DNA of 48,494 nt, the filler included, from Catajapyx aquilonaris (taxonomy: Eukaryota): NCBI GenBank assembly GCA_000934665.2. It is 2 parts of 2 records of this genome, joined end to end, with 100 filler letters (N's around TTAATTAATTAA, not from the genome) between each part and the next. Parts side by side here need not be neighbours in the genome. Positions count along the whole stretch, not along the records: positions 24,306 to 48,494 come from JYFJ02005549.1; 1 more part is not named here. One strand, 5' to 3'. The position numbers and the translations under genes are program-made. Position 1 is the first letter of the stretch; each line of letters opens with the position of its first letter. The notes under the pieces are model-generated. The model did no database searches. It was given only the letters and a program-made list of their open reading frames with translations, and was not told the origin of the DNA. This document shows positions 24,206 to 48,218 of this stretch, piece after piece.

Positions 24206-24305
24206 NNNNNNNNNNNNNNNNNNNNNNNNNNNNNNNNNNNNNNNNNNNNTTAATTAATTAANNNNNNNNNNNNNNNNNNNNNNNNNNNNNNNNNNNNNNN
24301 NNNNN
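24206..24305. other. Artificial contig spacer (N44-TTAATTAATTAA-N44)
   Basis: Exactly 100 nt and symmetric. TTAATTAATTAA places stop codons in all six frames and is a known linker for concatenated contigs. Confidence 0.9.
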
Positions 24306-25814
24306 ACTCCTCAGCGTCAGTACTAGGTCCCTGCACACTCGTTTTTCAAGTAAGTATCACAACAGAGCTGTATTTCGCGCCGACCTAAACTCCCCAATTA
24401 CCAAATACTGTACGTTTTGTGGCCAACGTTACTGTGGCTTTGCCACGACGAGGTGCATTCGGATGCGCTCTCTGAACTGCCCGGCTCTTCCACCCCGACT
24501 TCCGCCACTTCGTCGCGTAGGAAATATCTTCCTTTTTTTTTTTTAACTTGTCGACTAACTTGAAGACTTGGAAAACGCCAGATTCGTCTTGCTTCTTAGA
24601 CACCAGCTTCATAATGTTTTCTTCAACATGTTCCAGCGTGTAAGGGACATCGATCGTATCTTTAGCAGACTCGTCGATAGCCCGGCCGATGTTTATCGTG
24701 CAATGCTCTGGAGAAGTCGGATCTAAATTCTTCGGCTTGACGCCATACTTGTTCTTCCTCTGAAATGTATTATGTCTGAATCTACCATACGAATACACGT
24801 ACAGTACCATGCGGCACATGTTGGTCTGTCTCGATCGCAATCAGAAACTAGTGTGTGAGGGAGACTACTAACCTTAGATTCTGCATCAATTTCAATGAGG
24901 CCAGAGGCATGGCTGTCGCCTACGAACATGAACCCGGAAGAGGAGGGTTCCATTGCGAATATCCTACTGTTTACGGACCGTGTCCTGTAAGTGAGTCCGG
25001 GACACTTCAGGCATGTTTCTCTGGCAACCGTCAACTAATTGTTGGACACGACAATCACTAGCAACATGGATAAATAACTAAGGAACTTCATCGCATGTAG
25101 AGTATATTGTTGTAGGTAGACTTTCTTGTGCAGAATCAAAAAAGAGCCACCCACAATTATTAGAGAGCCTATACCCACAATATTCATCAGAAGTTAACCC
25201 GTCGAGTCTGCTTTCATTGAAGTTAAACATACCTGTTGCAACAAAATGAATTTGTGCGACTATATATAGTAGTGAAAACGAACACATTGAGAGACTCGCA
25301 TACCCTCCGATTAGCAGCACATCCTGTGTCTGCCAGTGAGATACAGATTCGCAAAAATAAAACTGCGGTCATACAATGGCATGAACTATACAAGGACGTA
25401 TTCGGCCATGTATTACATAATGATTGGGCATGACGACATTTTTTTTTTGCGTATGTCCGGATCTACGTAAGTGCGGACTACTTAATTGTTTAAAAAATGT
25501 AAATTAATATGAATAATGGATAAGATAATAGAGATCGCAAAAGTCAAAATCAAAATGACTGTCGTATTGATTATGAGATTAAACGGCACCATTTTGCCAC
25601 TAGGTACTGAATGATGCGACTCACCTAACGATGTAACGAATGAAAAACAAGCGCCGTGGTCATCTTGAGACAAATTGAACTGCCAGTGAAACTGAAAACT
25701 TTGAGCCAATGCAATCATCAATTCATTGGAAGAGTGAAATGTTTCATTATACTTTATTTGCCAAGTATACAATCGGTTTGTTTCCAATACCGCGTACTGT
25801 TTCTGTAAATCCGA

Positions 25815-26651
25815 TTAGCCGTAGACATAGAGCCGTGCTTCTGCGGAGACTCCTCCTTCTACCTGGCACCGGTACTTCCCGTTGTCTGACAATCTCGCGT
25901 TTTTGATAACCAGAGCATGCGACGACCACTTTGTCATGTAGTCGGCGAAGCTCGATTTGTCGTCGTAATCAGCACCCGTGGTGTCCAGAGCGTGCGGTAC
26001 TCCATTGCTGTCCAGCTTGGACCAGGTCAGAGAGTCTCCCAAGTGTCTAGTGTTCTCTCCACGTACGACACACACCAAAGCGGTGTCTCCTCCTTCCTGG
26101 ATGTACTCGTCCTGTAGTTCCACTGTGGTTGGTCTGGCACCCACAGCTGATGAAAAAACATCGCCAGACATGAACCTAACACTGTTGTCAATCTATAGAT
26201 CTGTAAAGTACATTACCTTGCACCACGTTGACTTGTATGTCCGAAAACTCTCCGCTTTGTACCTTGCAGCGGTATGTCCCAGCGTCTGACTCTTGAGCGT
26301 TTCTAAACTTGTACGTGAGTGCCCTCAAAGCAAGTACTCTAGGGTACCTAGCTGTAGTAAGCTCGTTGAACGGAATTCTCTCTGGTGTACCACCATCTGG
26401 GTCTAGTTTGAAGAGGGTTGCGTCGCAGGCCTTGTCGCTGTAACTGCGTGCGATGCAGACCAGAGAGCCGCTAGAGGAGCCTGCCTCGATTGACTCTTCC
26501 TTCGGTGCATATGCGAGGATCGGAGTCAGACAACCCGGTTCGGCTGCGGAAATTGATATGGTTTCATTCCACCTCTGTGGGAGATTGGCCAACACTACTC
26601 ACCTGCGTCTGCTACCAGCGGAATAATCAGCAGAAGGAGCAGGATGGCCAT
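25815..26651 (-). CDS. Ig-1: secreted two-Ig-domain protein, subfamily A, 235 aa
   Basis: Exons 26651-26603 (MAILLLLLIIPLVADA), 26543-26217, 26146-25815. GT-AG phase-1 introns, open frame. B-strand Cys and D-x-G-x-Y-x-C in both domains. AATAAA at 25758-25753. Confidence 0.9.
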
Positions 26652-26726
26652 GTTTCTGCGACCGAGGAACAGTGCTTCACGTTGACTGCCAGTGAAACCT
26701 ATGCTGAGAGAGGTATTATTAACAGT

Positions 26727-26735
26727 GCATCCGGT
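26727..26735 (-). promoter_or_regulatory. Conserved ETS-like motif ACCGGATG(C/T) with adjacent AGATA, upstream of Ig genes
   Basis: Same motif at 31603-31611, 42219-42227, 45823-45831 and 47123-47131; variant ACAGGATGT at 25319-25327. It lies in a block conserved between paralog promoters. Confidence 0.5.
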
Positions 26736-27278
26736 GTATGTGGGTGAGATACATATTCGTAAAAATAAATATACAATCACACAGTCAAGTAGATATAAGG
26801 ACGCAGTAGTCCATGTGTTGCATACTGATGGGGAAATACGGAAATATTTTATGTAAGCCTAGATAAGTAGGGGGCATCATGTAAGTGAAGCAGTGGCGTA
26901 ACAACTCGACTATTCGGAAAACCCCAATTCAATTTGGGAGTTTTCCGAATAGCCAGCAAGCAGCAAATAAGTAAGATTTATTTCTCACAAAGTACGACGA
27001 TTTCAGAAAATTCTTCTGGCGCGATTCTCAAGGTTGTCGTTCCGTATATTTTAGCATTTATATCAAAGACATTTGCCAATTCCAGCTATCGTAGATCCCA
27101 AATTTTGTACAAAAATTGGTCCTCGTCTGAAACCGCCAGGAAAAGTCCGAAACCGGATGTCGGCCATCTTGGGTCCAGCGGCCATGCAAAGACGGGAAAA
27201 ATCCCCCCCAAAAATTGTAAAATTCATCGGAGATAAAAACCAGAAGTGTGTTCGGATTCGCACAAGATGGCGAATTAG

Positions 27279-28790
27279 CTACCCCGTGATAGGGCGGTGC
27301 CCTCTTGGGGGGATACAGCACTCGGAGAACAACTAAAAATAGCGTACTAAACAATGTGTGGGTATAATACTGCATGTAAACATACATACATTATCAACAA
27401 CAAGGAAAGTCAAAAGGGAGCGATCCAGATATGATTATTCACGGAGCTCAATCCTTTTTAGTACAGACTCCAAGAAATTGTTTAAATTGTAAGTCAACTC
27501 CTTAGGCAAGGAGACCTGTTGTTGGCGTCAAGGATAAGGAAGAATCGTGTTCTGCAATCACGGAAATTTTTTCAAACAAGTCCCGTAAGAGTAAGATAAA
27601 GGAATGACTGATTCCAAGATGACCTAATTTTTCCAGTAATGTAGCATGCAAAATGGAGTCGAAAGCCCGAGACAGATCAATAAAATACTGAAATCCGTTT
27701 TCCCTCGGGTTTGGATGTGTAACGGTGTATAAGCGGTGCATTGAGCGAAAATATAATATGGTCGAGACAACCCTTACCTGCCCTGAAACCAGCCTGAGTG
27801 TCTGATAACCTGTTATGAGCATCCAGCCATTTGGTTAGGCGTCTGGTGAAAATAGACGTAGCAGATGTTGCCACCAAATCTCAGGGTCAATGAATTGTCT
27901 GCCCACGGCGGGTTAAAATTTTGAAACTGTGTTCCAAAAATATTAACGACTCTTTGGAGTGTAATAATTCGTGAAGTGAGGATCCGTATAATATTTTATT
28001 TTCTTAGCTTTGCACATGTTCCGGTAGGTTTTGCGGGCTGAGACATACAGAAAACGGTCCTTTTCCGAGCTCGTGATTTTCCACTCCTTTAATAGATTCC
28101 TTATATTGCGCTTAAATTCCAACACTGGGGCATCGAACCACGGTGGGTGAGACTTCCTAACGTGGGATGAACCGGGTCGCACTGGGGTAATACAAAAGCC
28201 CATATTCGGTCAGGAGTCGGTGGACTTCATTTTTGAGCTGTAATGCGAGTGGGGCTAATGTATGAATCGGACCGTTATCTATCAAGAAAAGCTGGTCTAA
28301 CTATGGCAGCAAAAAGTCGAAACCTTCGTTTGGGATTATTGTCAGCCGAAGTAGGGAAGAGAAGGGGGGCGCGGGCGGTTCCACTGGTTCGCTGGCCCGA
28401 AAGGAGCCGATAATAATAGGTAGGGGATCGGAAACAATAGAACTAAAAACAAAAAAATCCTAACAACAGGCAAACAAGTCAGCTGATGCAAACATATGAT
28501 ATAATCTATTGTACTTTGACATTGGTGGCTGACGAAGGTATGATTGCTAGGCGAGTCCGATGGCCGTGAGCCGTTCAATATGAGTAGATGCGACTGATCC
28601 AGAAAATTTGAAAGCTTTTTTCCCCTAGAGTTAAGCAATTTATCTAGAGCAATCATATACCTTCATGGGCGGTGGGTTGCGCACCCGCATTATGAGCAGC
28701 TGTTTCATTGGCAATACGGGCATTAAAGTCACCCATCAAGAGGAGGTCAGGAAAACCAGCGAAAATGTTCAATGAATTCGCAACATTCCA
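27279..28790 (-). mobile_element. Degenerate, internally deleted non-LTR retrotransposon (APE endonuclease + RT)
   Basis: Minus-strand motifs LLLMGDFNARI (~28745-28712), LILNG...HTF...STIDYII, PPWFD, QAGFRAGKGCLDHI and FIDLSRAFDSILH..LLEKL. Frameshifts and stops present; 3' tail motif at ~27279-27312. Confidence 0.9.
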
Positions 28791-29129
28791 TGACACCACC
28801 GTTCACCTTGGGTTTTCTCAAAGCTACTGAGGATGGATGGACCTGGGTGACCTCCAGATCGGGCACAAGATAAATGGGAGCTGCAAAAAATGCGCGCACA
28901 CCAACTTTAGGGGGGGGAATAATTACATTCAACTCATCACTGACACTAACACTTGCACTGACCATAAGGGTTTGGGGTGTTCGATGGAATTAGGAGGTGC
29001 TTGGGTCAGACACTGCCCGCTGCGAGTCCCCTGGGTGTCTTCAGACTGGGTAGGAATTCGAAGTAGGTGGTGGGGGCCTTTAGTGGGAGCGGTACAAGTA
29101 AAATGACAGAAAAAACCCGCATTTGATGA

Positions 29130-29675
29130 TAGAAGCAAGCCACTTTGCACACTTGTTCCTAACACCATAAGGTTCAATTTGACCCGCAGTACCCTCAACA
29201 TTTCCACGGAGGATTCAAAATGGCGACCATCTTTTCAAAATGGACGACAATATCGAAAAGTGTTACTTTTTGGGGTACTGATGAATGCGGGGTGTCGATT
29301 CCGCATGATTTAAGGTCGCTAAACTCGAATTTGGCCATACCAAGTTGCCATCTTGAATTATTTCGGCCCCAGAGGCGCCAATTTCTAAAATGGCGGCTTT
29401 TATTGTATTCACCTCAAATTGTCCTAGAAGCGAATGTGATGTGTCGATTCCGGGTAATTTCCACATGCGAAGCTCAAATATGAACTGACCTTGGCGACAT
29501 TTTGTGTCAATTAGGCCCCACAGGCGCTATTTTCCAAGATGGCGGCTGATGTATTCTGTAAACTCGGAACTAGTCGAAGCGGTACACAAAAATATGCTGC
29601 AAAATCTTGCAGAAAGCAAGCCACTTTGCACAGACGTTCCATAGACCAAGACGATCAATTTGACCCGCAGCACCC
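29130..29675. repeat. Unclassified repeat with internal direct repeats and AAAATGGCG/GCCATCTT motifs
   Basis: AAGCAAGCCACTTTGCAC...CAATTTGACCCGCAG.ACCCT at ~29131-29195 and ~29613-29676; GGCCCCA.AGGCGC...ATGGCGGC twice. Confidence 0.55.
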
Positions 29676-30683
29676 TGACCCCTGACCTTGTGGAGCGCTA
29701 ATAAATTATTAGAACGATGTAAACAAGTCAAGGGTGGCACAGTCGCCGCGGTTACGGAACTGGCAGTCAGCGCGGCGCTGCCACATCGTCGCGTTCTTCC
29801 TGCGAGTTCTTATTGTTCATGGAGGGGGGTATTTTTCATCCCAAAGTTTGGCCAAACCAAGACTTCCACACTCGTGCCCTTTCACACACTTGCGGTAATT
29901 CGGCGTAAAAACCTTGTCATGGGCTCGAATCTCACAGGTACCGACATGGAAAGGAGTGATTGCGGGTCAAAATCAAAAACTCTACCTGGCCGCGGCGGGC
30001 GCAAATATCGCCCCAGGAGAAAAATAAGCGCACCATCTCAAAGTGCAACTCTTTCGCGTCGAGATACTCCAGTTTCATGCCGATACCTCCATATTTGCGA
30101 CCGTGACAGCGAGAGGAAGAAGTGTCAAACTCACGGGCCGGCCCGCGACGGGCTCCCCGCAACAATGGATCGCGTAGCCTAGAGCGCGCTCATAAATTCA
30201 GGCCGGACCTTTGCAGTTTCCAATTCACTCATTCTAAGAGGCATCCAAAGTCTGCGCTGCGTCCAAATATGTAGGCCCTACATCGGGTTCAAGAGGATAA
30301 CCAAACAGATCTCCAATGTCAAGTCTCAGACCTTGCTGCCGGTGGTCGGGGGGGGGGGGGGNATGCAGCGCCAATAGATTCTCGGGACAAGGAGATTGGT
30401 CATACTCCGAGGCAGCTACATTTTTACTTTCTTCGTGCCCGTGAACCAAGTCCGGCCAATCTCACTTAGCTTATAGTCTCGAAGAAAGGCTTGGCGTCCA
30501 CCACGATCTCACGACTTTGTACGGCGGAGTGGACAACGCTTGGCTCCCAGACACTATCTCACAGGTTTTTTCGGCCGAGGACTTGGCGCGTTTTTTACGA
30601 GTGCGTTTTTGAGGGGGATACTTTATTCGCCAAGTATACAATCGGTTTGTTTCCAATACCGCGTACTGTTTCTGTAAATCCGA

Positions 30684-31546
30684 TTAGTAGACATAGAGCC
30701 GTGCTTCTGCGTGGACTCCTCCTTCTACCTGGCACCGGTACTTCCCGTTGTCTAACAATCTCGCGTTTTTGATAACCAGAGCATGCGACGACCACTTTGT
30801 CATGTAGTCGGCGAAGCTCGATTTGTCGTCGTAATCAGCACCCGTGGTGTCCAGATCGTGCGGTACTCCATTGCTGTCCAGCTTGGACCAGGTCAGAGAG
30901 TCTCCCAAGTGTCTAGTGTTCTCTCCACGTACGACACACACCAAAGCGGTGTCTCCTCCTTCCTGGATGTACTCGTCCTGTAGTTCCACTATGGTTGGTC
31001 TGGCACCCACAGCTGATGAAAAAACATCGCCAGACATGAACCTAACACTGTTGTCAATCTATAGATCTGTAGAGTACATTACCTTGCACCACGTTGACTT
31101 TTATGTCCGAAAACGCTCCGTTTTCTGCCTTGCAGCGGTATGTCCCAGCGTCTGACTCTTGAGCGTTTCTAAACTTGTACGTGAATGCCCTCAAAGCAAG
31201 TACTCCAGGGTACTTAGCTGTAGTATACTCGTTGAACGGAATTCTCTCTGGTGTTCCTCCATCTGGGTCTAGTTTGAAGAGGGTGGCGATGCAGGCCTTG
31301 TCGCTGTAACTGCGTACAATACAGACCAGAGAGCCGCTAGAGGAGCCTGCCTCGATTGACTCTTCCGTCGGTGCATATGCGATGGTCAGAAGCCGACAAC
31401 CCGGATCGGCTGGAAATTGACATGGTTTCATTGCACCTCTGTAGAGTATAATATAGGTAACGGGAGATCAGCCAAGAGACTGGCCAGCACTACTTACCTG
31501 AGACTGCTACCAGCGGAATAATCAGAAGAAGGAGCATGTTGGCCAT
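30684..31546 (-). CDS. Ig-2: secreted two-Ig-domain protein, subfamily A, 234 aa
   Basis: Exons 31546-31498 (MANMLLLLIIPLVAVS), 31409-31083, 31012-30684. Phase-1 GT-AG introns; recent duplicate of Ig-1. Confidence 0.9.
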
Positions 31547-32234
31547 GTTTCTGCGACCGAAGAACAGTGCTTCAAGTTGCTGACTGCCAGTTGCTGAGCA
31601 GCGCATCCGGTGTATGTCGGTGAGATACATATTCGTAAAAATAAATATACAATCACACAGTCAAGTAGATATACGGACGCAGTAGTCCATATGTTGCATA
31701 CTGATGGGGAAATACAGAAATATTTTATGTAAGCCTAGATAAGTAGGGGACATCCTGTAAGTGAAGCAGTGGCGTAACAACTTGACTATTCGGAAAACCC
31801 CAATTCAATTTGGAAGTTTTCCGAAGTGTCAAGTTGTTACGCCACTTCTTGGAATTGGGAGTTTTCCGAATAGCCAGCAAGCAGCAAATAAGTAAGATTT
31901 ATTTCTCACAAAGTACGACGATTTCAGCAAATTCTTCTGGCGCGATTCTCACGGTTGTCGTTCCATATATTTTAGCAGCTATCAAAGACATTACCACTTC
32001 CAGCTATCGTATAGAGATCCCAAATTTTGTACAAAAATTGGTCCTCGTCTGAAACCGCCAGGAAAAGTCCGAAACCGGATGTCGGCCATCTTGGGTCCAG
32101 ACTGCGGCCATGCAAACACGGAAATAAATCCAATTTCTTTTGTAAGATTCATCGGAGATAAAACCGGAAAGTGTGTTCGGATTCGCATAAGATGGCGAAT
32201 TAGATAGAATGATGTCTTACCGTGTCTTACATTA

Positions 32235-33025
32235 TTTATTTATTTGTTAATTTATTTACCTGCCCCGTGATAGGGAGGTGCCCTGTTGGGGGGGGGGGGG
32301 ACACAACGCTCGGAGAACAACGAAAAATAGAATAAACTATGTGTGGGCATAATACAGTAAACATACATACATTATTATCAACAACAAGAAAAGTAAAAAA
32401 GGAGCGATCCAGATAATTTATACAGAGCTCAGTCCTTTTTAGTACAGACTCCAAGAAATTGTTTGAATGGTAAGTCAACCCCCTTAGGTAAGTTGTTGAA
32501 CAAAAGGTGAAAACGATGTGTAACGGTGTATAAGGGCGGTGAGCGTAAATAAATGGTCGAGACAACCTACCTGCCCTGAAACCCGTCTGAGTCTCTGAAC
32601 CTGTTATGAGCATCCAGCCATTTGGTTAGGCGTCTGGTGAAAATAGACGTAGCAGATGTTTCCACCAAATCTCAGGGTCAATGAATTGTCTGCCCGCGGC
32701 GGGTTTAAATTTTTAAACTGTGTTCCAAAAAAATTTAATTAGTCTTTGGAGTGTAATAATTCGTGAAGTGAAGATCCGTAATATTTTATTTTCTTAGCTT
32801 TGCACATGTTCCGGTAGGTTTTTGCGGGCTGAGACATACAGAAAACTGTCCTTTTCCGAGCTCGTGATTTTCCACTCCTTTAAAAGATTCCAGAGTTAAG
32901 CAATTTATCTAGAGCAATCATATAGCTACCTTCATGGGCGGTAGGTTGCGCACCCGCGCCGCATTACAAGCAGCTGCTTCATAGATTGGCAATACGGGCA
33001 TTAAAGTCACCCATCAAGGGGAGGT
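32235..33025 (-). mobile_element. Second copy of the degenerate LINE with (TAAA)n tail
   Basis: GDFNARI-coding segment at ~32989-33020, TQTGFRAG remnant, and a (ttta)n tail at 32235-32258. Confidence 0.8.
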
Positions 33026-33499
33026 CAGGAAAACTAGCGAAAATGTCCAGTACTGCCCTTTTCAATGAATTCGCAGCATTCCATGACACCACCGTTCACC
33101 TTGGGTTTTCTCAAAGCTACTGGGGATGGATGGACCTGGGTGACCTCCAGATCGGGCACAAGATAAATGGGAGCTGCAAAAAATGCGCGCACACCAACTT
33201 TAGGGAGGGAAATAATTACATTCACCTCATCACTGACACTAACACTTGCACTGACCATAAGGGTTTGGGGTGTTCGATGGAATGAGGAGGTGCTTGGGTC
33301 AGACACTGCCCGCTGCGAGTCCCCTGGGCGTCTTCAGACTGGGTAGGAATTCGAAGTAGGTGGTGGGGGCCTTGTCCCGATGATATGTAGCGACCGTCTT
33401 CTTCTGCTGTAGGCGGTCGAGTGAGGTCTGTTAACTTGGAGTGCAAGGTTGAGCTAGAACAATAAAACATATGCAGGAATTTTGCACCCATTTTGCAAC

Positions 33500-34469: not shown

Positions 34470-37294
34470 TTATTCGATAGGAAGGACACACTGGAAGGCA
34501 GGGAGAGGAGGCCAGTTCTGATCCTGGTCGCAGACTGAATAGGCCAGAGGAAGGCCAGTGGTGCTCTGGAAGGGTTCCCTGCACCTGTACACGGCCATGG
34601 TACCCTCCGAGTGCCGCACATCGTGGCACTGCACCTCCCTTCCACTCGGGGCATGGCAACTCATCTCCATCTCTTCCATCGGAGGAGGAGGAGGGGCCTC
34701 ACAGGCTATCCTGTAAGGAACTGTGGACCAGTGTGGAGACAAGAACACATTGGTGATATCTACACTCTACATCATCAACGCACCTCCTGTTATTTCACAC
34801 ACGGAAAGTAGTCCGGCGTAATGTGGCAATGCGCCAAAGGAATGATGAGCCGGAAAATATGCCACAAAGTGTGAAGGCCCTTCTAGTGATGTTGGGTAAG
34901 TTATTCCCTTTCTCGTGTCGTTCAGCCATTCCCTGCAACAGAAATGATTAGTGTGGACAATCAGACATGGACTTCTGCAGGGGAGGGCCAGATTACTATT
35001 ACAAGATGCTTGAGTCATGACTGGTTCCATCAGTCCATCCCCACTCTTTGGTTAGGTTGTTCTTGGAGAGGCCGATCCAATAAAAGAAAATGCTGTAATG
35101 TCTCATTTCCTCAATCAGCCACTCCTGAAGCGGAAAGTTAGGCTCTTGTTAGCAAGGGCTAATATAATAAACTGTAGCCTACCTCCTACCATCAGTAATT
35201 GAAACGCCTGATTCCAAATAATCTCAGCTCATTGCTCTTGCAGGTCCAGCAAAGAACGGTGGCCAACCACTAAATAAAGGATGTTATTATTTGATCTGTA
35301 AAGTGACACTTTGAAGTCAAATACTCAGCAAATACTGTATTACAGAATAATTATGGCAATACTCTTAACATTTCTCGATGCCGTATTCAAAAACATCCAA
35401 TTTATCAGTTCACCATAATGGAATTAGGTTGTTCCAATTTACTTCGAAGGGCTTTAATTAAGCTTACCTTCTCTTCCTGTGAATTTACAGACACCAAATC
35501 CCCTCCGCTAGCTTTGCATCTCTCTCTGGCTTCAAACCATGTTGTCTTACGAATGGTCTCCAGGTAATAACAACTTGTGGAGCCTTCTCTATTCAGCCAA
35601 TCCCCAGGACACGAGTCATTTCGTATATCTGAAAAATTGAAAATAATGTGCTTGTGGTGAGCAACAGGACGACTCTGCTTAACCCCTTCGCTACCAACTA
35701 GGCCAAAAACGCATCTGCCTTGAGAAACGTGCCAGACGAATTCTCTGGGAGGTGAGAATGACGCCTTTCCGCCTTCCTCTTGCAATAAAATATTAAACAC
35801 TGATGATAGGAAACCAACTCGAATATTATGTAACGTGGATTTAAACAAGCTTTCCAACGATATATGACCGCATTAATTTTCTGGATCATTTCCGTGGGAG
35901 TTATTTTGAGTCAAACACAAGGACCTATATTAAATAAAGTAATAAACGGATAGTAGTTGCTTGCCCCTGACTGTGCCCCTGGCTACTCCTAGCGCCGCAG
36001 CCTTCCACCTGTAAGGTCCCGAGTTCGATCCCCGGATCGGCCAGAGGATACTTATGTGGATAGAGTTTCGATGGGTTGTCAGGACCCTTGACCTGACCCC
36101 CTAGCTAGCTCGCAGGGTGTGGGAATCGAAAATCTAGGCGTTTTCGGCCTAGCTGGTATAGCGAAGGATCCTTATAATATGGACAGTGCTTATGTTCACA
36201 TGAGTGTGAATGCCATTGAAATAGTTTAGGACTTCGTATTCCTACTAAGCAAGACGTGAATGGCACAAATAACCCCCAATCTAAATAATTAGAATGTTAC
36301 CAATAACCAATTTAAGTGGAAAAGTCACCTTTTTCTTTTTCACATACAGACTGCCAAACGATAAGACACTCTGTATTTAGAGCCCGGATGTTGTTGTAAT
36401 AAATCAGCACAAAACCACAATGATCGGTGAAATATCTTCCTGAAGGTTCGACAGTATCCAAGTTCCTGGAATAATTCAAGTTAATTAGTGAGTGTTGGGT
36501 ATACTGCAGGGGACAAGAGGTGCGTACCAATGCGGTGTCTAGTAGTTTGTCTTTCATAGCACTTGTTGTATACGAAACAGTACGCTATACATCGATTCCA
36601 ACATCAAAAATTCTGCATGAGTGAATTATTTGAAGATTTGTATTGCTAGCAGGATCTGTCAGTATGATGCTATCATGTGTATAGGATTAGACTAGGATGC
36701 ATGGTGCGCGATCTGATTTGGTGGCACACAACTGCAACCACATAACAGAAAAAACAACGACACTGTCTTGTATGAACCCATAAGTTGCCTGTGGATACAT
36801 ACAGTGATGGAGATCTTTGAAAGACCCTCCCGTCTATCCATTTCCACTTGTATCCTCCGACACCTGGCGATGTCTCCTCGTACACTGCTCTCATTCCAAT
36901 GAACCAGCCCGCTGGGTTACCCAGGAAGGTGGGATACATATTTGAAGCTATCCAATCCTGCTCAATGAATTTTGTTAGTATACTTCTATTGTTGTGAGCA
37001 TTTCTGTGGAATATTAAGCCTACCCATTCCTTATCAGAGTTCACCACCAGCAGATCACCACCCTTCTCTCGGCACGAGTCGCGAGATTCCTGCCAAGTTC
37101 TTAAGTCGTCCTGGAGCAAGTAGCAAGAGGTTTCGTCTGGAGGAGATATCCAGTCTGCAGGACATCTGGCAGCCAAGGCGCCTGAAGGAAAGGGAGAACA
37201 TTGAACATACTGATCATAACATTTTTTTCATATTCGCATGAGTATTTCCTTTGACCTTACCATAAGCCAGAAGGATGAGTGCAAAGTAGTACAT
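34470..37294 (-). CDS. CTL-A: secreted protein, two C-type lectin-like domains + 6-Cys Sushi/Wonton-like domain, 388 aa
   Basis: Exons 37294-37261 (MYYFALILLAY), 37181-37024, 36957-36803, 36465-36329, 35628-35468, 35124-35003, 34932-34784, 34720-34470. All GT-AG, frame continuous (1167 nt). Motifs CP.DW...SCY, TW.E.R..C...GGDL, WFIGM/WIGL, W.W.DG, VCE. AATAAA at ~34318-34313. Confidence 0.88.
35966..36287 (+). mobile_element. tRNA-derived SINE in intron 4 of CTL-A
   Basis: B-box-like GAGTTCGATCCC at 36021-36032 with a degenerate tRNA-like head and ~250-nt body. This intron is much longer than the matching intron in CTL-B. Boundaries approximate. Confidence 0.65.
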
Positions 37295-39685: not shown

Positions 39686-40669
39686 TTACACGACCACAAG
39701 ATATGTCTCTTTATATATGTCATCCGTCAGTTGGCATCGGTAGCGACCAGCGTATCTCTTTTCGGCTCTTCTAATGTCAAGAACTTTAGTGTACAGTCCA
39801 ATGTCGTAATTGGAAGTATCCATAGTGGCCATGTTCCCTCCGGAGTAAAGGGCATCGACTGGCCATCCGTTCATGATCCTGACCCACTTGAAAGACACAT
39901 CTCTCAACATGTCATTGTGTCTGGCAACACACGGTATGCCAATATCGGCACCCCTGCGAACGTATACATGTGAAGGCATGTCACCAACAGATGGCCTAAG
40001 AACAACGGCTGGAATAATTTAATTATTAATAGCGAATATTGGAGGAATGTTTAAAAAATATGCACATAGACGATTTGGCTGTTACCTTCGCTGTCTTCTC
40101 GGTCAACCACGGTGACTTCGGTGTCCGCAAAGACGCCCTGTCGAGCCTGGCACCTGTACGTTCTGGAATTGGGCACGTTGCGCAACCACACCAGATTAGT
40201 GAGGATTTTGATACGACCAGCGATAGGAAGAGTGTTGGACTCTGTGCGATGACCAGCATTCCCAAGCGGCTTTGGACTCTGTGAGCCGTGGTTCAACACG
40301 AACCATGACACGTCGCAGTCTTCCTCTGCATGGTACTGGATCATGCAGATGATCATGACTGTGTCGCCTCGCCTGACCACTGTCTCTCTGGGGACGTACG
40401 TAATCTCCGAAGTGTTGCAAACAGCACCTGGGGACATAAATTGTAGAGGTTGTATGTACAGAGAGTGGTCGATATAGTCTCATACAGTGCTAACGAGCAG
40501 GGCCTTTTGGTCTAACTGTTGCCCCAGTGTAAATGTGTTAAAGGTTATTCCGCCATGGTTAGACCCTCCCAGTATCTCTTATCGTATATAATTTGTACAT
40601 TAGATAATTATTGTCCTCACCTGAATATCCTGCCAGCGAGATCACCAGGCATAGAATGCGCCAAATCAT
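39686..40669 (-). CDS. Ig-3: secreted two-Ig-domain protein, subfamily B, 237 aa
   Basis: Exons 40669-40621 (MIWRILCLVISLAGYS), 40427-40086, 40008-39686. Phase-1 GT-AG introns; RTYRC and AGRYRC F-strands. Confidence 0.9.
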
Positions 40670-40972
40670 GATAGGAAGCTGCGACTTGTGAGAGTTTGAA
40701 CACCTGGACTGCTTTTTCTCTTGCCGTGCTTATGAATGATGTAGATTCACTTGCTGGTGGCATCCTGCTTCCTTGGATTGACTGTTTATCTTCCCCTAAA
40801 ATAGGCAGGATGCAGATTTCATAACACAATTTTTACATCCTCCGGGTAGCAGCTGATGGGCTATCTACACGGTCTTGTACTGTACATACTTTTCACAAAC
40901 ATCGATATTTCTTGGCAGTGCTTTATTCTGAATTTTCACACTACAGTTCAGGTGAGTTCAGGAGTCCATTTT

Positions 40973-41924
40973 TTATAAGACCACTATGTTGGTCTCCTTG
41001 TATATGTCGTCCGTCAGTTGGCATCGATATCGGCCTGCGTCTTCCTTCCGGGCTTCGACAAGGATAAGGACGTGAGTATACAGGCCACTGTCGTAGTTGT
41101 AACTATTGGCTTCGTTGAATATCCCTCCGGTCTCACTGGGCTCACGTGGTTTCCCATCCACCATCTTTACCCACCTTAAGCGTCTCGTATTGAACTTCGT
41201 TTCGTCTTCCTCATCGTATCTGACAATGCAAGGAATGGGAACATCATCGCCTTCTCGAACGTACACCTCTTCGGGCAGGCCACCAACAGACGGTCTTAGC
41301 GCAACGACTGGAATAATTAGAATAATCAGTTGTAGAATATCAGACAAACCCTACCTCTCTTTGTGTGCATGGTGTTTCAAAATTGCATTTCGTGATCGCC
41401 AAATTACTAAATAACGTCTAGCTCTTACCTTCGTCGTCGACTGTCGGATCCACCACGGTGACTTCGACGTCCGCAAACCCACCGTTTTGAGCCTGGCATC
41501 TGTACGTTCTGGAATCCTGCACGTTTCTCAAATACAAGTAATTGGTGCGAAGTCCAATAATTCCGCTCGCAGTTGTTGTCGTTGAGTCAAAACTCCTATC
41601 AAGTGCTTTTGGTCTCAGATGACCAGGGTCAAACATGAGCCACCTTAAGCCGCACTCTTCCCCGTCCTCGTACTGGACAATGCAGATGAGCTCGGCTGTG
41701 TGGCCCCGTCTGACCACTATCTCTTGAGGCACATACACGACTTCAGAAGAGCTGCAGACCGCATCTGTGGACATAATTCAAATGTCATATGTGGGAATTT
41801 ATACCGATTTACCGATCCGTGTTACAGAATATGATTCACGTAAGAGATCATCATTGCAAGCACAGCATTACTCACCTGAAAATCCGGCCAGCGAGATCAG
41901 CAGGCATATAATAGGCCAAATCAT
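40973..41924 (-). CDS. Ig-4: secreted two-Ig-domain protein, subfamily B, 239 aa
   Basis: Exons 41924-41876 (MIWPIICLLISLAGFS), 41764-41429, 41307-40973. AATAAA at 40927-40922. Confidence 0.9.
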
Positions 41925-42657
41925 GATTTAAATCCGAATTTTTGGACCTTTGAAGCACCAAGACTGCATTTGCTGGAACTACGCTTATGACTAATGCAGA
42001 TTCACTTGATGGCTGCGTCCTGCTTCCCCTGATACACTCTTTATCGTTATTTTAAAATAACCTCCTGCGCAGAATCAATTCTTACAATAGCTTATTGAAC
42101 TGCCAGCGAAAGAGCACATCACTTTGAACCAATGAGCAGCTCATCTGTTCATGGGAAGAGTGAAAAATAATATTTATGTGGTACATCGAGAGAGTCGTAC
42201 CCTTCGATTAGTAGCAGCACATCCGGTGTATGTGTGTTAGATAGATATTCGCAAAAATAAAACTGCAATCATACAATGTCATAAAGTACAATAGATAAAG
42301 GACTCACTTTTGCAGGTGTTGCATAATGAACACTTTTTATTGCAGGTTCATTTCACTTCAAAGAGAACTGCTTTTGGCAATAATTATATTGAACCTTGTT
42401 TTATTGGACTTGCATACACACTGTATTAGGAAGGAAGAAAATTAATTCATTAATGCACCTGTCATCTGTACGATTAGCGATATGAGTGATGCCTATAGGG
42501 ATACCAAATAATATTGTTGGAGCTCCAGGAAGTAAATAAGTCACTCCTAGAACAAGACAATGGCAGTTACATGATGTCACTGCAGGCTCTGGAGATAATA
42601 ATTTTTTTTCTTCAATTTTGTCAATTTTTGTCATTTTTAAAGAATTAATGAATTAAT

Positions 42658-43523
42658 TCACCCCCCCATTACAACCAAGTTGGTGTCCTTGTAAATGTGG
42701 TCTATCAGTTGGCATCGGTATTGTCCAGCGTCTTCCTCTCTGGCGTTCTTGACCACCAGGACGTGAGTGTACAGTTGACTCTCGTAGTTGTAGCTCTCGT
42801 ACTGTCCGAAGTCTCCTCCTGTTGCGGCCACAGGACGTGCTTCATGTTCGCTGTCGTTTAGTTTAAGCCACTGGAAAGATCTTTCGTACGAAGGGTCTTC
42901 GTACCGGACAATGCACACGATGGCAATGCTGCCACCTTCTCTCACTTGCAGTACTTCTGGAAGGTCCTCCACGAACGGTCTCACAGCAGTCACTGAAAGT
43001 ACCGTAATGCAGCGTATATACAGGGAGATAATAATTATTATCAAACAACATAATATTGTACTCACCATGACTTTCCACGTCCGGATCCACCACAGTCACT
43101 TCGATGTCTGCAAACGCACCATTTTGAACCTTACACCTGTACATGGTCGACACCTGCGCATTGTACTTCCCAAGAAACCAGGTAGTTATTCGAACCAGGC
43201 CTGGAATCCGGACAGCCTCTGACGTTGCAATGTGCAGTCCTTGAACTGGTTTTGGTGTGAGGTCACTAGGGTCGAATTGCAGCCAGGTCACCCCGCATGT
43301 GTCACTATCATCGTCTGACTGTACGACGCACAGCAGCTCAAACTCATCTCCTCTTTTGACCGACACTTCTCTAGGAGCGTACACGATGTGCGGGTTACAT
43401 GTCGCATCGGCTGATGGACATAGTGTTGTTAGTATATGATGCATTTTGAGGTCCTCACATGTACTCACCAGACAACGTGAGGGCCAGTAGAAAAAGTGCG
43501 ATCATTGTTGACGGTACTCTCAT
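42658..43523 (-). CDS. Ig-5: secreted two-Ig-domain protein, subfamily B, 244 aa (alternative start 43505)
   Basis: Exons 43523-43469 (MRVPSTMIALFLLALTLS), 43410-43066, 42992-42658. Phase-1 GT-AG introns. Confidence 0.88.
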
Positions 43524-43696
43524 CCTCACTACACTGAGGTGGTCCTCTCACTAAAAATCAAGCTGACATCTCTCAGGTTATAATCTCCATAAGCTGCATC
43601 CGCTTGGGAAGATTAGCATTACGTAATAAAGTATGTACTGGTACCTTTTATTTGTCATTATTGTTTTACACTATACAAGTTTTCGCAAGATCTGGA

Positions 43697-44502
43697 TTAC
43701 CATACCACGAGATCTGCATCTGCGTAGATCACATTGCCCACTTGACATCGGTACGTCCCTGCATCGGCCTTCCTGGTATTGCTGATTACGAGCATGTTTG
43801 CGGACCATTTGTGAACGTAGTCGTCTACGTACGAGTCGGCATCGTAGTCAGCGCCAGTCCTGTCCAGATCAACCGGTTCTCCATCGCTGTCCAGTTTGTA
43901 CCACTCTATCGAATCGACCAGGTCTCGCATGTCCTGTCCACGTGCGATGCAGACCAAGCTGGCCTCGAACCCTGACCCAACACTCTCGCTCTTCATGGTC
44001 ACTGTCGTGAGTCGCTCACCAACACCTGAAAATACCGGGTATCACACTAGTTGTCAACCTACAGTAGACATTATTACCTCTGTGCACCACGTTGACGTGT
44101 ATGTCCACAGATTGACCGCTTTCGACCTCGCAACGGTACGTTCCGGCATCCGAATCCTGGGCGAAAGATGTGGTCAGCGTTGCAGTTGTCAGTGCCATTA
44201 GTCCGGAGAACCTCTCAATGGACGTCTCTTCGCTCCAATGTCTCCGTGGTGTGTTGTTGTCCAGTTTTCGTATTGTGACCTGGCATGGTGTGTCGCTATA
44301 GCTGCGTGCGATGCAGACCAAGGTGCCTCTCCAGCCTGCCTCGACCGACTCCTCTATCGGTGCGTACAAGATGGTCGGATTCACGCAGCTGGCAAATGCA
44401 CCTGAAGTATAGTCATTAGACCTCCAGAAGTGCGGTACTGACAGATTTGCGTACAGTACCTGAGATGAATGCGAGCGATGCAAACAGCAGCATGGTGGTC
44501 AT
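43697..44502 (-). CDS. Ig-6: secreted two-Ig-domain protein, subfamily A, 231 aa
   Basis: Exons 44502-44460 (MTTMLLFASLAFIS), 44401-44078, 44025-43697. Introns 58 and 52 nt; AATAAA at 43652-43647. Confidence 0.88.
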
Positions 44503-44637
44503 GATGCTTCCAGGAACAACGCCGCACAGAGAAACCCGACATAGCGATATGAATGCATCCGTTGAACAGTACGGTATCCGTTTATGGACGATACGACTTG
44601 GCCAAAATAGTACACTAGTACAATGGTTATCGAAGGT

Positions 44638-44676
44638 CAGGAGATGACGACTCATTAATTGAGTCGTAATCTCCTG
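44638..44676. repeat. 39-bp imperfect palindrome between Ig-7 and Ig-6
   Basis: CAGGAGAT-g-ACGACTCA-ttaat-TGAGTCGT-a-ATCTCCTG. Confidence 0.85.
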
Positions 44677-44808
44677 TCCTTCGAGTTGTATCATAATTCT
44701 TTGGGAGAAACAGTGTACATATATAGCAATGCTTTTTGAAGCTGCATCACTTTATTCTCCAGCACGTGCGTATTAATTACAATCGCGTTGTTGCTGTCCA
44801 TGATAATA

Positions 44809-45736
44809 TTATTCCCAGACCACAAGCTGTGCGTCTGCGTGGACTCCACCTTCTACCTGGCACCGGTACGTTCCAGCGTCGGACAGTCTGGCGTTTTTGA
44901 TAACCAGGAGATGACTGGACCACTCGTCGATGTAGTCAGAAAATTGGGGCGTACCGTCGTAATCAGCACCCGTCGTGTTCATATCACGCGGATCTCCGCT
45001 GCTGTCCATCTTGGACCAGGTCAACGACTCAGCCAGACTTCTGGTGTCCTCACCACGTACGATGCAGACCAAACCGATGTCTTCTCCTTCTGGCACGAAC
45101 TCTCTCCGCATGTCCACAGTCGTTGGTCTCTCACCCACTTCTGCTGGACAGACATGAACCTATATATAACGCCATGTTGTTAACCTGCTGGATCTACCGT
45201 ACCTTCCAGCACGTTGACTTGCATGTCCGCATACTGTCCACCTTGTACCTCGCAGCGGTATGTCCCAGCGTCCGACTCTCGAGCGTTTTGTATGGTGTAC
45301 GTGTATACTTTCTCAACAAGCAGAAAGGGGTACCTGCTTGTCATTTCCTTTTGGGCCGTAATTCTACGCGGTGTTCCTCCTTCGGGGTCCAGTTTGGAGA
45401 TGGTGGCCTCGCAGGGATATTCGCTGTAACTACGTGTAATACAGATCAGGGACCCTTGTGCGCCTGCTTCGATTGACTCTTCCGTTGGTGCGTACGTGAG
45501 GGTCGGATACAAACAATCAGAATCAGCTGAAAGTGTACTTGGAGTTATTAACTGTGTCACAAGTTTCGGACAAACATGTCCTGGAGCAACCATCATATGT
45601 GCAGCCTGGTATGAAAGATTGGATAGGTGATGATGTCATTATTGCGAAAAATGCATTCTTCTTGGCTTCTTGGAATATTATTCTTACCTGCGATTGCTTC
45701 CAGCCATAGAATCAGAAGAAGTAGCACGGTAGCCAT
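44809..45736 (-). CDS. Ig-7: secreted two-Ig-domain protein, subfamily A, 235 aa
   Basis: Exons 45736-45688 (MATVLLLLILWLEAIA), 45526-45203, 45143-44809 (tandem CAGCAG acceptor). AATAAA at 44756-44751. Confidence 0.9.
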
Positions 45737-46188
45737 GTTGCTGCCTGAAGCAATGTCACACGTTGACTACCGAAGAATGTCTACCATGTCCATCCAATCG
45801 CACCTTCCAATGCATAGTACGTACATCCGGTCATCGCAGATAAACATGCGGAAATGCAAAAATAAATAGCAAATATTTATTCAAGGTCAAGACTTGGCCA
45901 AGGACACGGCTACATTCCGATCGCATTTTTTCATTTGACGTCATCAGTATTGCTGTACTGGACCTGTCGGGCTTTCTGTGTGCTCGTTGCTGAGCAGAAA
46001 TATAGTCGAAGATAAATCCAAGAAATAATATATTAACTACAAACTCGCTCATTCCTCACTTTTGGAGCATAGTAGTTGTCACTGTAGGTATTTTTAAATA
46101 TAAATATAGGGTAACCTCCTGAATATGCTGCAACACTTTATTATTCACGTGCGTATTTTACAATCGGGTTGTAACTATCCAAGTGGAC

Positions 46189-47030
46189 CTATGTGTACCG
46201 TTCGTTATTACCCCAAACCCAAACCACAAGCTGTCCGTCTGCGTAGACTCCCCCTTCGACCTGACACCGGTACGTTCCAGCGTCGCACACTCTCGCGTTT
46301 TTTATTACTAGGAGATGCGCGGACCATTGGTTGATGTAATCGGCAAAGTACGAATCTGCGTCGTAATCAGCGCCCGTGGTGTCCACATGACGCGGTACTC
46401 CATTTCTGTCCAGCTTGTACCAGGCCAGCGAATCTAACAGCCGTCCAGTGTTCTGTCCTCGGACAACGCAGACCAAGCCGGCGTCTCCTCCTCTTTTAAT
46501 ATTCTCGCTCTGCATGGCCACAGTCGTGGGTCTACCATCAGATTCTGCTAGAACATGGCTAGTTATGTACAATATAATAATTTATTGTAGACATTACCTT
46601 GCACCACATCGACTTGTGTGTCAACAAACTCTCCATTTTCCACCTGGCAGCGGTATGTCCCAGCGTCCGACTCTCGAACGGTGTCAAATTTGTATGTGTA
46701 CGCTCTCAGAGCAAGTAGCCTATGGTATCTGGCTGTATGTTTTTCTTGGGTCGAAATCCTCTCTGGTCTTTCTCCGTCGGGGTCGAGTTTGAAGAGAGTG
46801 ACGTCGCAAGGCGTGCCGCTGTAACTTCGTGAAATACAGACCAAGGAGCCTTGCGATCCTAATTCGATTGACTCTTCCTTCGGTCCATATGCGATGGTCG
46901 GATATAGGCAACCGGGATCAGCTGGAAATGGACGATGGCAAGAAAATAATAATTATTACATTATTCCTCCAAATTGCTTACCTGTGATTGCTTCAAGCGA
47001 TAGAATTAACAGGACAAGCTTGGTGCCCAT
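46189..47030 (-). CDS. Ig-8: secreted two-Ig-domain protein, subfamily A, 243 aa
   Basis: Exons 47030-46982 (MGTKLVLLILSLEAIT), 46921-46598, 46547-46189 (TAGCAG acceptor). AATAAA at ~46142-46137. Confidence 0.88.
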
Positions 47031-47272
47031 GTTGTTGCCTGAAATAATGTCACACGTTGACTACCCGATGCGATGATCCGAATACGTCCAGCATCTTCTA
47101 ATCATACCCTCCAATGAGCAGCACATCCGGTCATGGCAGATACACATGATGCCTCCGGGTATAGCAGCTTATTGGTTGGCTACATACAGGGTTTTGTACG
47201 GCATACTTTTCACAAACATCGATATTGCTTAGGAGTGCTTTATTCTGAATTTTCATACTACATCAGGCGCAC

Positions 47273-48218
47273 TTACAGGACCACTATTTTGGTCTCCTTG
47301 TACATGTCATCGTTCAGTTGGCATCGGTACCGACCCGCGTCTTCCTTCCGGGCTTTGACAAGAAACAGGACGTGAGTATACAGGCCACTGTCGTAGTTGT
47401 AAGCATTGGATTGGCTGAATTTCCCTCCGGTGTCACTGGTCTCGCGTGGCTCCCCGTCCACCATCTTGACCCACTTGAAGTTCCTGTTGAACGACCTGTC
47501 TTCGTGATCGTATCTGATAACGCAAGTTATGGGAACATCATCGCCTTCTTCAACGTACACTTCTTCGGGCAGGTCAGCGACAGACGGTCTCAGAGCCACC
47601 ACTGGAATAATTAGAATAATCACTTATACGGAATATCAGACAAACTCTATCTCTTTTTGTGCGCATGGTGTTTCAAAATGGCATTTCGTGATCGCCATAG
47701 CAGATCGGCTCGTACCTTCGTCGTCTACTGTTGGATCCACCACGGTGACTTCGACGTCCGAAAACCCACCGTTTTGAGCCTGGCATCTATACGTTCTGGA
47801 ATCCTGTACGTTGCTCAAATACACGTAACTGGTGCGAAGTCCAATAATTCCACCCAAAGTTTCTAATTTTGAGTCAAACATCCCATCAATATCCTTTGGT
47901 CTCAAATAATCAGGGTCAAACATGAGCCACTTTAAGCCGCACTCTTCCCCATTCTCGTACTGGACAATGCATATGAGCTCGGCTGTGTCGCCCCGTATGA
48001 CCACTATCTCTTTAGGCGCATACACGACTTCAGAAGAGCTGCAGACCGCATCTGTGGACATATTTTCGCATATTATACTGTCGATGTAAATGTTACACCC
48101 TCACAATATACACGAACCTATATACATGCGAAAAATTATAGTCATTTCAAATTCAAGAATTACACTCACCTGAAAATCCGGCCAACGAAATCAGCAGGCA
48201 TAGAGTAGGCCAAACCAT
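47273..48218 (-). CDS. Ig-9: secreted two-Ig-domain protein, subfamily B, 237 aa; closest to Ig-4
   Basis: Exons 48218-48170 (MVWPTLCLLISLAGFS), 48051-47716, 47601-47273. AATAAA at 47244-47239; 3' flank homologous to that of Ig-4. Confidence 0.9.

Follow-up and report, generated by a model that had tools for sequence, protein, structure and literature searches.

Recent gene duplicates that are nearly identical in one protein domain and clearly different in the next raise the question of whether selection has driven the variable domain apart or exchange between the copies has kept the other one alike. Such a pair, Ig-1 and Ig-2, lies in a 48,494-nt stretch of the genome of Catajapyx aquilonaris (GenBank assembly GCA_000934665.2; hereafter, the window), whose DNA is eukaryotic, with short introns. 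Each gene codes for two immunoglobulin (Ig) domains, D1 and D2. The first-pass annotation of the window attributed the faster divergence of D1 to diversifying selection or to exon-limited gene conversion on a ligand-binding domain, in a division of labour like that of variable (V) and constant (C) domains. We find that the asymmetry between D1 and D2 is regional, not exon-limited, and that most of it is the footprint of a recent homogenising exchange, i.e., largely an ordinary conversion mosaic. A concentration of amino acid replacements at the tip of D1 is suggestive of selection there, mainly in Ig-2, but this remains unproven.

The Ig-1 and Ig-2 genes and their differences

Both genes are on the minus strand and have three exons each, with GT-AG borders at all four introns. 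Exon 1 codes for a 16-residue signal peptide and ends in phase 1, exon 2 codes for D1, and exon 3 codes for D2 and ends with the stop codon. The features of the pair and of the duplicated units that house it (the latter given without strand) are as follows.

26603..26651, minus strand: Ig-1 exon 1, coding part (signal peptide, phase 1); ATG at 26651, GT donor after 26603
26544..26602, minus strand: Ig-1 intron 1, 59 nt, GT-AG
26217..26543, minus strand: Ig-1 exon 2 (D1), 327 nt, phase 1-1; Ig fold in the AlphaFold model (pLDDT 93.6)
26147..26216, minus strand: Ig-1 intron 2, 70 nt, GT-AG; removed in a contig (run X5, see below) that joins exon 2 to exon 3
25815..26146, minus strand: Ig-1 exon 3 (D2 and stop codon); Pfam Ig_3 and I-set above cut-offs, model pLDDT 85.3
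25749..25814, minus strand: Ig-1 3′ untranslated region (UTR) to the edge of the duplicated unit; AATAAA at 25758-25753
31498..31546, minus strand: Ig-2 exon 1, coding part (signal peptide)
31410..31497, minus strand: Ig-2 intron 1, 88 nt, GT-AG
31083..31409, minus strand: Ig-2 exon 2 (D1)
31013..31082, minus strand: Ig-2 intron 2, 70 nt, GT-AG
30684..31012, minus strand: Ig-2 exon 3 (D2 and stop codon), without the terminal Gly codon
25749..29080: duplicated unit, copy 1 (Ig-1 unit), from self-BLAST and MAFFT alignment with 30618-33373
30618..33373: duplicated unit, copy 2 (Ig-2 unit), from the same comparison with copy 1
29081..30617: spacer between the units, 1.5 kb, with high-copy repeats (from contig depth) and a probable scaffold join (single N at 30362)
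39686..48218, minus strand: seven further intact paralogs, A, B, C, Ig-3, Ig-4, Ig-5 and G, found by tblastn with single-exon translations

The region 25815-31409, to which the earlier claim referred, runs from the Ig-1 stop codon to the first base of Ig-2 exon 2. The spliced Ig-1 open reading frame (ORF) is intact and 708 nt long. In both genes AATAAA stands 56 nt past the stop codon, and neither gene has a damaged ORF, splice site or poly(A) signal. Since neither a transmembrane segment nor a further domain follows D2, the Ig-1 and Ig-2 products would be small secreted two-Ig proteins of 234-235 residues. The seven paralogs served as outgroups and as the family baseline.

Our recount of the differences agrees with the earlier one. 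D1 has 26 nucleotide differences in 324 in-frame nt (26/327 over the whole of exon 2), which change 18 of 108 residues (109 if the shared split codon is counted), and five codons differ by synonymous changes only. D2 has five nucleotide differences, every one a replacement, which alter four residues, plus the 3-nt indel of the terminal Gly. Intron 2 differs at 1 of 70 nt and the 3′UTR, up to the edge of the duplication, at 1 of 69; for exon 1 the count is 5/49, and for intron 1 it is 6/57 aligned nt with two indels of 31 and 2 nt (7/85 when the 5′UTR is added). The contrast between D1 and D2 is beyond chance (Fisher test, p = 1.4e-4 for nucleotides and p = 0.0027 for residues). The three clusters of changes reported at the N-terminus, the C′-D region and the FG loop are also present, and on the AlphaFold model they map ahead of strand A, to strand D and the adjoining DE turn, and to the end of strand F plus the FG loop. 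An indel-based realignment of the N-terminal cluster was considered and rejected, since the outgroups back the ungapped codon alignment. The mutation spectrum gives no hint of a deaminase-type bias, with 19 transitions and 19 transversions in a hand count over the listed differences.

The claim that D1 has diverged faster than the adjacent non-coding DNA stands on one side only. D1 exceeds intron 2 and the 3′UTR taken together (26/327 vs. 2/139, p = 0.005) and also the far-upstream intergenic baseline (38/1211, p = 4e-4). On the 5′ side it does not: compared with the 5′ flank and intron 1, D1 is equally diverged (odds ratio 0.99, p = 1.0), and a tighter 5′ set consisting of intron 1 and the 5′UTR also equals the D1 replacement rate (p = 1.0).

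A regional step in divergence

We used our own implementations of the maximum chi-square test, binary segmentation, a Sawyer-type run test, Nei-Gojobori counts and a pairwise GY94-type likelihood. The maximum chi-square scan, which spanned 1179 aligned columns (26951-25749), placed a break after position 26235, 18 nt before the end of exon 2 (permutation p ≤ 0.0006). The two copies differ at 58 of 696 columns (8.3%) on the 5′ side of this break and at 7 of 483 (1.4%) on the 3′ side. Two adjoining blocks, given here without strand, are thereby delimited.

25749..26234 (Ig-2: 30618-31100): low-divergence tract, a putative gene-conversion tract; 7 differences in 483 columns and one 3-nt indel
26235..26679 (Ig-2: 31101-31574): high-divergence island; 38 differences in 443 columns, 8.6%

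The tract begins 18 nt before the end of exon 2 and continues through intron 2 and exon 3 into the 3′UTR; the island runs from the 5′UTR through exon 1 and intron 1 over almost the entire D1. Binary segmentation, applied to the full duplicated unit, reproduced the limits of both and returned the following segments (Ig-1 coordinates), with two short poorly aligning patches falling between them.

29080-27801: divergence 3.2%
27800-27218: divergence 15.5%, repeat-rich, alignment doubtful
27190-26727: divergence 3.0%
26679-26235: divergence 8.6%, the island
26234-25749: divergence 1.4%, the tract

Non-coding sites follow the same step. Between the non-coding DNA on either side of D1, divergence differs by a factor of about six (27/338 in the 5′ flank and intron 1 vs. 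2/139 in intron 2 and the 3′UTR, p = 0.005), where the 5′ flank, here as in the odds ratio given above, contains one badly aligned indel patch. When only neutral-class sites of the island are considered (5′UTR, intron 1 and D1 synonymous sites, the last differing at 5/77), 12 of 162 differ, which is more than upstream (38/1211, p = 0.012) and more than in the downstream non-coding DNA (2/139, p = 0.014). Since these sites are elevated relative to both sides, the coalescence of the island appears older than that of its flanks, and selection on D1 codons alone cannot produce the pattern. In the Sawyer-type test, performed on 343 polymorphic sites of the five closest paralogs, the longest concordant run comprised 71 sites, all of them in D2 (p = 0.025), and the sum of squared fragment lengths was likewise significant (p = 0.0056).

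A contiguous stretch of lower divergence that includes non-coding sites, such as gene conversion leaves, is therefore found next to D1. Because the tract ignores exon borders and reaches the edge of the duplicated unit, interlocus gene conversion or unequal exchange is indicated, and D2 and its flanking non-coding DNA would be only about 1.4% diverged because the tract was homogenised recently. Interlocus gene conversion is the most likely agent as judged from the sequences, and we infer conversion rather than unequal crossing-over as the mechanism. The exon-limited process proposed earlier does not fit: the break (26235) is inside exon 2, intron 2 and the 3′UTR belong to the tract, and the 5′UTR, exon 1 and intron 1 belong to the island. 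The first-pass annotation had allowed that recent conversion might explain the identity of D2 and intron 2, and it is this possibility that the tract, with 7/483 differences over coding and non-coding DNA alike, bears out.

Replacements at the tip of D1 and competing explanations

The regional step leaves the replacements within the island to be accounted for. For the whole of D1, omega (the ratio of replacement to synonymous rates) is 1.33 by Nei-Gojobori counts and 1.52 by pairwise codon likelihood. The latter value is above 0.4 (p = 0.004) and older pairs of the family have omega of 0.2-0.65 in both domains; ordinary constraint is thus not acting on D1 in this pair, and shared history combined with such constraint is insufficient.

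We next considered where the replacements fall. The D1 AlphaFold model was built on the nine paralogous D1 sequences, and distal loops were defined as DSSP-unpaired stretches at the end of D1 far from D2 (residues 1-7, BC 34-40, DE 67-69 and FG 95-98), the loop ends being assigned from textbook Ig topology and not from model coordinates. Changed residues are distributed over the model as follows.

D1 distal loops: 9 of 21 residues changed
D1 opposite-end loops: 0 of 26 residues changed
D1 strands: 9 of 61 residues changed

Mapped on the predicted structure, the replacements concentrate in the distal loops and are not evenly spread (distal vs. opposite loops, p = 2e-4; distal loops vs. all other D1 residues, p = 0.0012). 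Older pairs alter the two loop sets alike (distal and opposite loops, respectively: 9/21 and 11/25 in Ig-1/Ig-5; 2/20 and 6/23 in B-G), so the empty opposite loops of Ig-1/Ig-2 are not just a matter of constraint. The 21 distal-loop codons carry replacements only and no synonymous change (likelihood-ratio test against omega = 1, p = 0.009, for a partition made post hoc), and the other 87 D1 codons have omega of 0.71 by maximum likelihood (ML). A wider tip class of 31 codons holds 15 replacement and no synonymous changes; the other D1 codons hold 6 and 5, respectively, and have omega of 0.36. The sites concerned lie in the N-terminal segment, the end of the BC loop, the DE turn and the FG loop. 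Cys4 and Cys39 of D1, a probable link between the N-terminal segment and the BC loop, are invariant in 9/9 paralogs and are flanked by changed residues 5-7 and 40. For the proposal of diversifying selection on D1, these results are at best suggestive: omega does not differ from 1 over the whole domain and exceeds it in the distal loops, a class chosen post hoc.

With Ig-5, Ig-4 and Ig-3 as outgroups, 8 of the 18 residue changes in D1 were polarised as derived in Ig-2 and 2 as derived in Ig-1, with 8 ambiguous. At the nucleotide level, the Ig-2 branch has 10 replacement and 0 synonymous changes and the Ig-1 branch has 3 and 3, with 10 ambiguous (Fisher p = 0.036); these counts would fit accelerated protein change in Ig-2.

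Taken together, a combination of a conversion mosaic with tip-focused replacements in D1 under selection, in a pair of tandem duplicates, is the explanation that we put forward, at roughly even chances. According to it, Ig-1 and Ig-2 would be tandem duplicates of a secreted gene that acquired a mosaic of divergence through exchange between the copies. Recent homogenisation would have affected a tract of 486 bp or more that takes in the final 18 nt of exon 2 and reaches the limit of the duplicated unit, and the 445-bp block upstream of it (5′UTR, exon 1, intron 1 and D1) would have escaped and stayed at 8.6%. Within this block, replacements would have accumulated at about the neutral rate overall, most of them on the Ig-2 lineage, with their placement on the D1 loops far from D2 presumably driven by selection on a binding surface at the D1 tip. 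That the same selection keeps conversion out of the island is a proposal to which we give slightly less than an even chance.

Several points weigh against this explanation. Whole-D1 omega is not different from 1 (p = 0.40 by likelihood; Fisher p = 0.81). The distal-loop class was drawn after the differences had been seen, rests on DSSP of a predicted model and on textbook topology in place of coordinates, and includes only 21 codons, for which the chi-square approximation is rough. The 10/0 count of Ig-2 is compatible with neutrality (0.76^10 = 0.07, from site counts), and ten further D1 changes are not polarisable. Conversion is deduced from one pair in one genome, and the elevation of neutral island sites rests on 12 changes. 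Finally, the tandem order of Ig-1 and Ig-2 passes through a scaffold join inside high-copy repeats.

The alternative that survives best, which we consider a real possibility though a distinctly less probable one, keeps the conversion mosaic and replaces selection by relaxed constraint, the D1 replacements being neutral drift in a redundant, young Ig-2. A whole-D1 omega of 1.3-1.5 that does not differ from 1 is what such drift would give, and the polarised replacements do fall mostly in Ig-2, including at sites conserved in Ig-3, Ig-4 and Ig-5 (P7, R65 and V94); that the five D2 changes are all replacements also agrees with a general relaxation after duplication. Drift should not, however, have placed 9 of 18 changes on 21 of 108 residues or have spared all 26 residues of the opposite loops, which are as free to change as the distal ones in older pairs. 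The remainder of D1, with omega of 0.71 (ML) or 0.36 (outside the wider tip class), and the intact state of the two genes (ORFs, splice sites and poly(A) signals) speak against relaxation as well.

Ig-1 and Ig-2 might also be a false duplication, i.e., two haplotypes of one locus placed in tandem by the assembler, with the D1 peak being a peak of polymorphism. We consider this unlikely. Homology between the units stops on both inner sides exactly at high-copy repeats (29080 and 30618), the spacer contains a single-N join, and divergence of 1.4-8.6% with indels is within the range of alleles in highly heterozygous invertebrates. High-copy repeats, with contig depth of several hundred to about 26,000, occupy 26882-27275 upstream of Ig-1 and 29049-30624 in the spacer; summed depth in the spacer is 600 to 26,000, compared with about 30-50 on unique parts. 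Five public runs contain the Ig-1 stretch, four from one sample and the fifth, X5, from another sample and study, its kind not being on record; none of the five is listed as RNA. Contigs of all four runs that bear on the spacer leave the window at 30242 or skip 30243-30362: in place of the 120 nt before the N at 30362, X5 has 25 other letters, and the contigs of X1-X3 have loose ends at 30242. The stretch 30243-30363 is probably a scaffold join or a misassembled stretch within the repeat.

Contig depth argues for two copies. In X2 and X3, a contig of about 1.5 kb spans the unique 3′ flank of Ig-1 and continues into D2, at depths of 23.4 and 30.9, respectively, compared with 14.7-25.1 and 20.1-36.1 for copy-specific contigs. 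The resulting ratio of about 1.2, with 18% of the contig shared, favours two real copies, since haplotypes collapsed in the flank would give a ratio of about 2; the depths are coarse, and they favour real copies over stacked haplotypes weakly. A 683-nt contig of X5 matches exon 2 of Ig-1 (26217-26544) with 0 differences and runs straight into the D2 exon and the 3′UTR. Since it joins exon 2 directly to exon 3, intron 2 was removed at the predicted junction, and the contig looks like a spliced transcript. Its D2 part mixes the copies, having Ig-1 letters at two places, yet no 3-nt gap relative to Ig-2, and may come either from a genuine recombinant allele or from two transcripts that the assembler fused. 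The X5 contigs do not cover D1 of Ig-2 and thus say nothing about the expression of Ig-2 either way.

A third possibility, which we regard as very unlikely, is that one of the copies received the diverged 5′ block from a more distant paralog located beyond the window, the true age of the duplication being reflected by the 1.4-3% divergence elsewhere. Such an import would make the neutral-class sites of the block more diverged than those on both sides, as observed, and three FG-loop states of Ig-2 are also found in paralogs of the other subfamily; yet nowhere in the window does a paralog share the Ig-2 states over an unbroken stretch of nucleotides. A distant donor would, moreover, have brought many synonymous differences (omega in older pairs is 0.2-0.65), and import from a typical distant paralog is disfavoured because the Ig-2 branch has 0 synonymous changes next to 10 replacements. 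Least probable of all is selection acting in a uniform history, with D1 alone accelerated by diversifying selection or an exon-limited process, since the excess of D1 over intron 2, the 3′UTR and the far-upstream baseline and the omega above 1 in the tip loops, which it would explain, come with equally high divergence of intron 1 and the 5′UTR (7/85), exon 1 (5/49) and D1 synonymous sites (5/77), with a break inside exon 2 and not at an exon border, and with the six-fold difference between the non-coding DNA on the two sides of D1, so that it is already contradicted by non-coding sites.

The nine-gene family and comparison with known systems

The seven paralogs share the plan of Ig-1 and Ig-2 (a signal-peptide exon, a D1 exon and a D2 exon), with GT-AG introns and no internal stops. 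The family thus comprises nine genes in two subfamilies: Ig-1, Ig-2, Ig-3, Ig-4 and Ig-5 in one, A, B, C and G in the other. All nine gene models end 0-14 residues past the last D2 strand, and in eight of the nine genes AATAAA is present 28-56 nt downstream of the stop codon. Most older pairs have synonymous divergence (dS) of about 1 or more or not computable; among the closest ones it is about 0.4-0.8. In pairs other than Ig-1/Ig-2, the residue identities of D1 and D2 are within about 10 points of each other, for example:

Ig-1/Ig-5: D1 70%, D2 63%
Ig-1/Ig-4: D1 58%, D2 63%
Ig-1/Ig-3: D1 51%, D2 50%
A/B: D1 51%, D2 51%

B (40973-41924) and G (47273-48218) form a reverse mosaic, in which D1 (10.7%, dS 0.16) is less diverged than D2 (16.1%, dS 0.40) and no alignment of intron 1 is obtained. 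Genes of this cluster may thus exchange sequence often. A V/C-like division of labour is thus not borne out: the seven other paralogs follow no D1/D2 rule, B-G is reversed, the five changes of D2 are all replacements, and both domains have the same strand order.

D2 of Ig-1 passes the Pfam cut-offs of Ig_3 (30.6 bits, cut-off 30) and I-set (28.8 bits, cut-off 23.7). D1 of Ig-1 alone is below the cut-off (Ig_3, 19.8 bits); D1 of Ig-5 passes that of Pfam ‘ig’ (27.2 bits, cut-off 21.8). In the AlphaFold models (pLDDT 93.6 for D1 and 85.3 for D2), both domains have nine strands, A-A′-B-C-C′-D-E-F-G, and no C″. The cysteine pair of strands B and F (Cys29/Cys92 in D1 and Cys25/Cys93 in D2) is invariant in 9/9 paralogs. 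D1 and D2 can be modelled as I-set-like members of the immunoglobulin superfamily. Assignment of D1 to the V-set was rejected, as there is no strand between C′ (54-56) and D (60-66) and the Pfam V-set score is 17.0 bits, with a cut-off of 26.

Relatives were searched for with several methods. A word-indexed search with D2, covering longer proteins only, gave 142 candidates, none at E ≤ 0.001. A profile of the nine D1 sequences retrieved 435 matches at E ≤ 0.001 from 1.84 billion representatives, the top ones being long multi-Ig proteins scored over many stretches; the 150 listed of these 435 matches resemble generic Ig proteins, and no close kin was seen among seven short ones that were inspected. 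Foldseek with the D1 model found at least 500 PDB Ig chains at E ≤ 0.001 (best TM scores 0.5-0.67), all of them generic; likewise, the ESM Atlas search returned generic Ig clusters, profile searches of solved chains returned generic members of the superfamily, and a literature search found nothing specific to this family. As far as protein sequences tell, this is a nine-gene family without detectable close relatives in the libraries searched.

Other features of the neighbourhood are as follows. A 17-nt motif, whose core we take to resemble an ETS-type site, occurs five times on the minus strand (25313-25329, 26721-26737, 31597-31613, 42213-42229 and 47117-47133; 0.21 expected by chance): three copies precede the start codons of Ig-1, Ig-2 and Ig-5 by 50-90 nt, one lies in the C-B intergenic region, and one, an orphan, lies downstream of Ig-1, where it is followed by a TATA-like run and no recognisable gene. 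Two 44-N gaps lie at 24206-24305, about 1.5 kb downstream of Ig-1, and sequence next to this orphan promoter-like element may be missing. The Ig-1 unit contains retroelement-like ORF fragments at 27502-28662, minus strand, with a weak RVT_1 match (16.6 bits); the Ig-2 unit lacks 526 nt that are present here (28101-28626). The DNA that separates Ig-2 from the seven-gene array carries, at 34470-37227 on the minus strand, exons that match the start of a C-type lectin domain twice (18.8 and 20.2 bits; being fragments, both stay under the cut-off) and a Sushi repeat once (20.8 bits). In Ig-4 and Ig-5, two acceptors stand in tandem at the end of intron 2 (AG, three bases, AG; 45141-45146 and 46545-46550, minus strand); depending on which is used, D2 could begin with one residue more or fewer.

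One broader interpretation, which we think rather improbable, is that the cluster, a neighbour of genes with C-type lectin and Sushi domains, encodes lineage-restricted secreted recognition proteins in which a disulfide-tethered patch at the D1 tip sets binding specificity, new duplicates diversifying this patch under positive selection while conversion keeps the rest uniform. If true, this would be a germline system with a variable tip and a constant body that is renewed with each duplication and is not fixed as V and C domains.

How do these genes compare with known systems? VCBPs of amphioxus and Ciona and mollusc FREPs are secreted proteins with one or two N-terminal Ig domains, encoded by diversified multigene families and defined by a C-terminal chitin-binding or fibrinogen-related domain. 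The genes studied here resemble them as a multigene family of secreted invertebrate Ig proteins; identity with either was rejected, since the ORFs stop right after D2 with no C-terminal domain and D1 is not a V-set domain. C. elegans ZIG and Drosophila Dpr/DIP proteins, small invertebrate proteins of two or three Ig domains, are similar in size and also have I-set-like domains. With the D1 model, Foldseek ranks Dpr1 first, DIP-eta tenth and the ZIG-8/RIG-5 Ig1 chains nineteenth (identity 15-20%, TM 0.48-0.61), and in profile searches of solved chains, titin, NCAM, contactin and antibody chains do at least as well as those of Dpr2 and DIP-alpha (E = 5e-7 to 6e-5). The similarity appears generic, and unlike ZIG and Dpr/DIP, the present proteins have an additional invariant cysteine pair in D1 (Cys4 and Cys39), come from a nine-gene cluster and end, according to the models, directly after D2.

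Conversion and diversifying selection act together in recognition multigene families such as MHC, immunoglobulin V genes, KIR and Ly49. As in these, Ig-fold domains are encoded by a tandem array and replacements are concentrated on exposed loops; unlike them, the nine-gene family has no family-wide hypervariable domain, D1 and D2 diverging alike.

The mosaic itself has its closest parallels elsewhere. In the review PMC3924837, the red and green opsin genes (human exon 5) are described as having a divergence peak around selected sites under ongoing conversion, and such a peak in converting duplicates is used to locate selected sites. An arthropod example, according to PMC3728101, is the GOT1p1/p2 pair of the copepod Tigriopus californicus, in which an island of divergence persists under interlocus gene conversion. 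In both cases, the diverged block holds functionally distinct residues and is read as the result of selection opposing homogenisation. The present pair differs in being known from one genome and in an island that also spans exon 1 and intron 1; what it shares with the opsin and GOT1 pairs is a long near-identical stretch, introns included, beside a short diverged block. Ig-1 and Ig-2 illustrate that a contrast between a variable D1 and a constant D2 can stem mostly from where a conversion tract ended, and comparison of young duplicates by exon must therefore include all flanking non-coding DNA. If the tip replacements are adaptive, the pair would show where the proteins of an uncharacterised secreted Ig family bind and would provide a compact invertebrate test case of selection opposing gene conversion.

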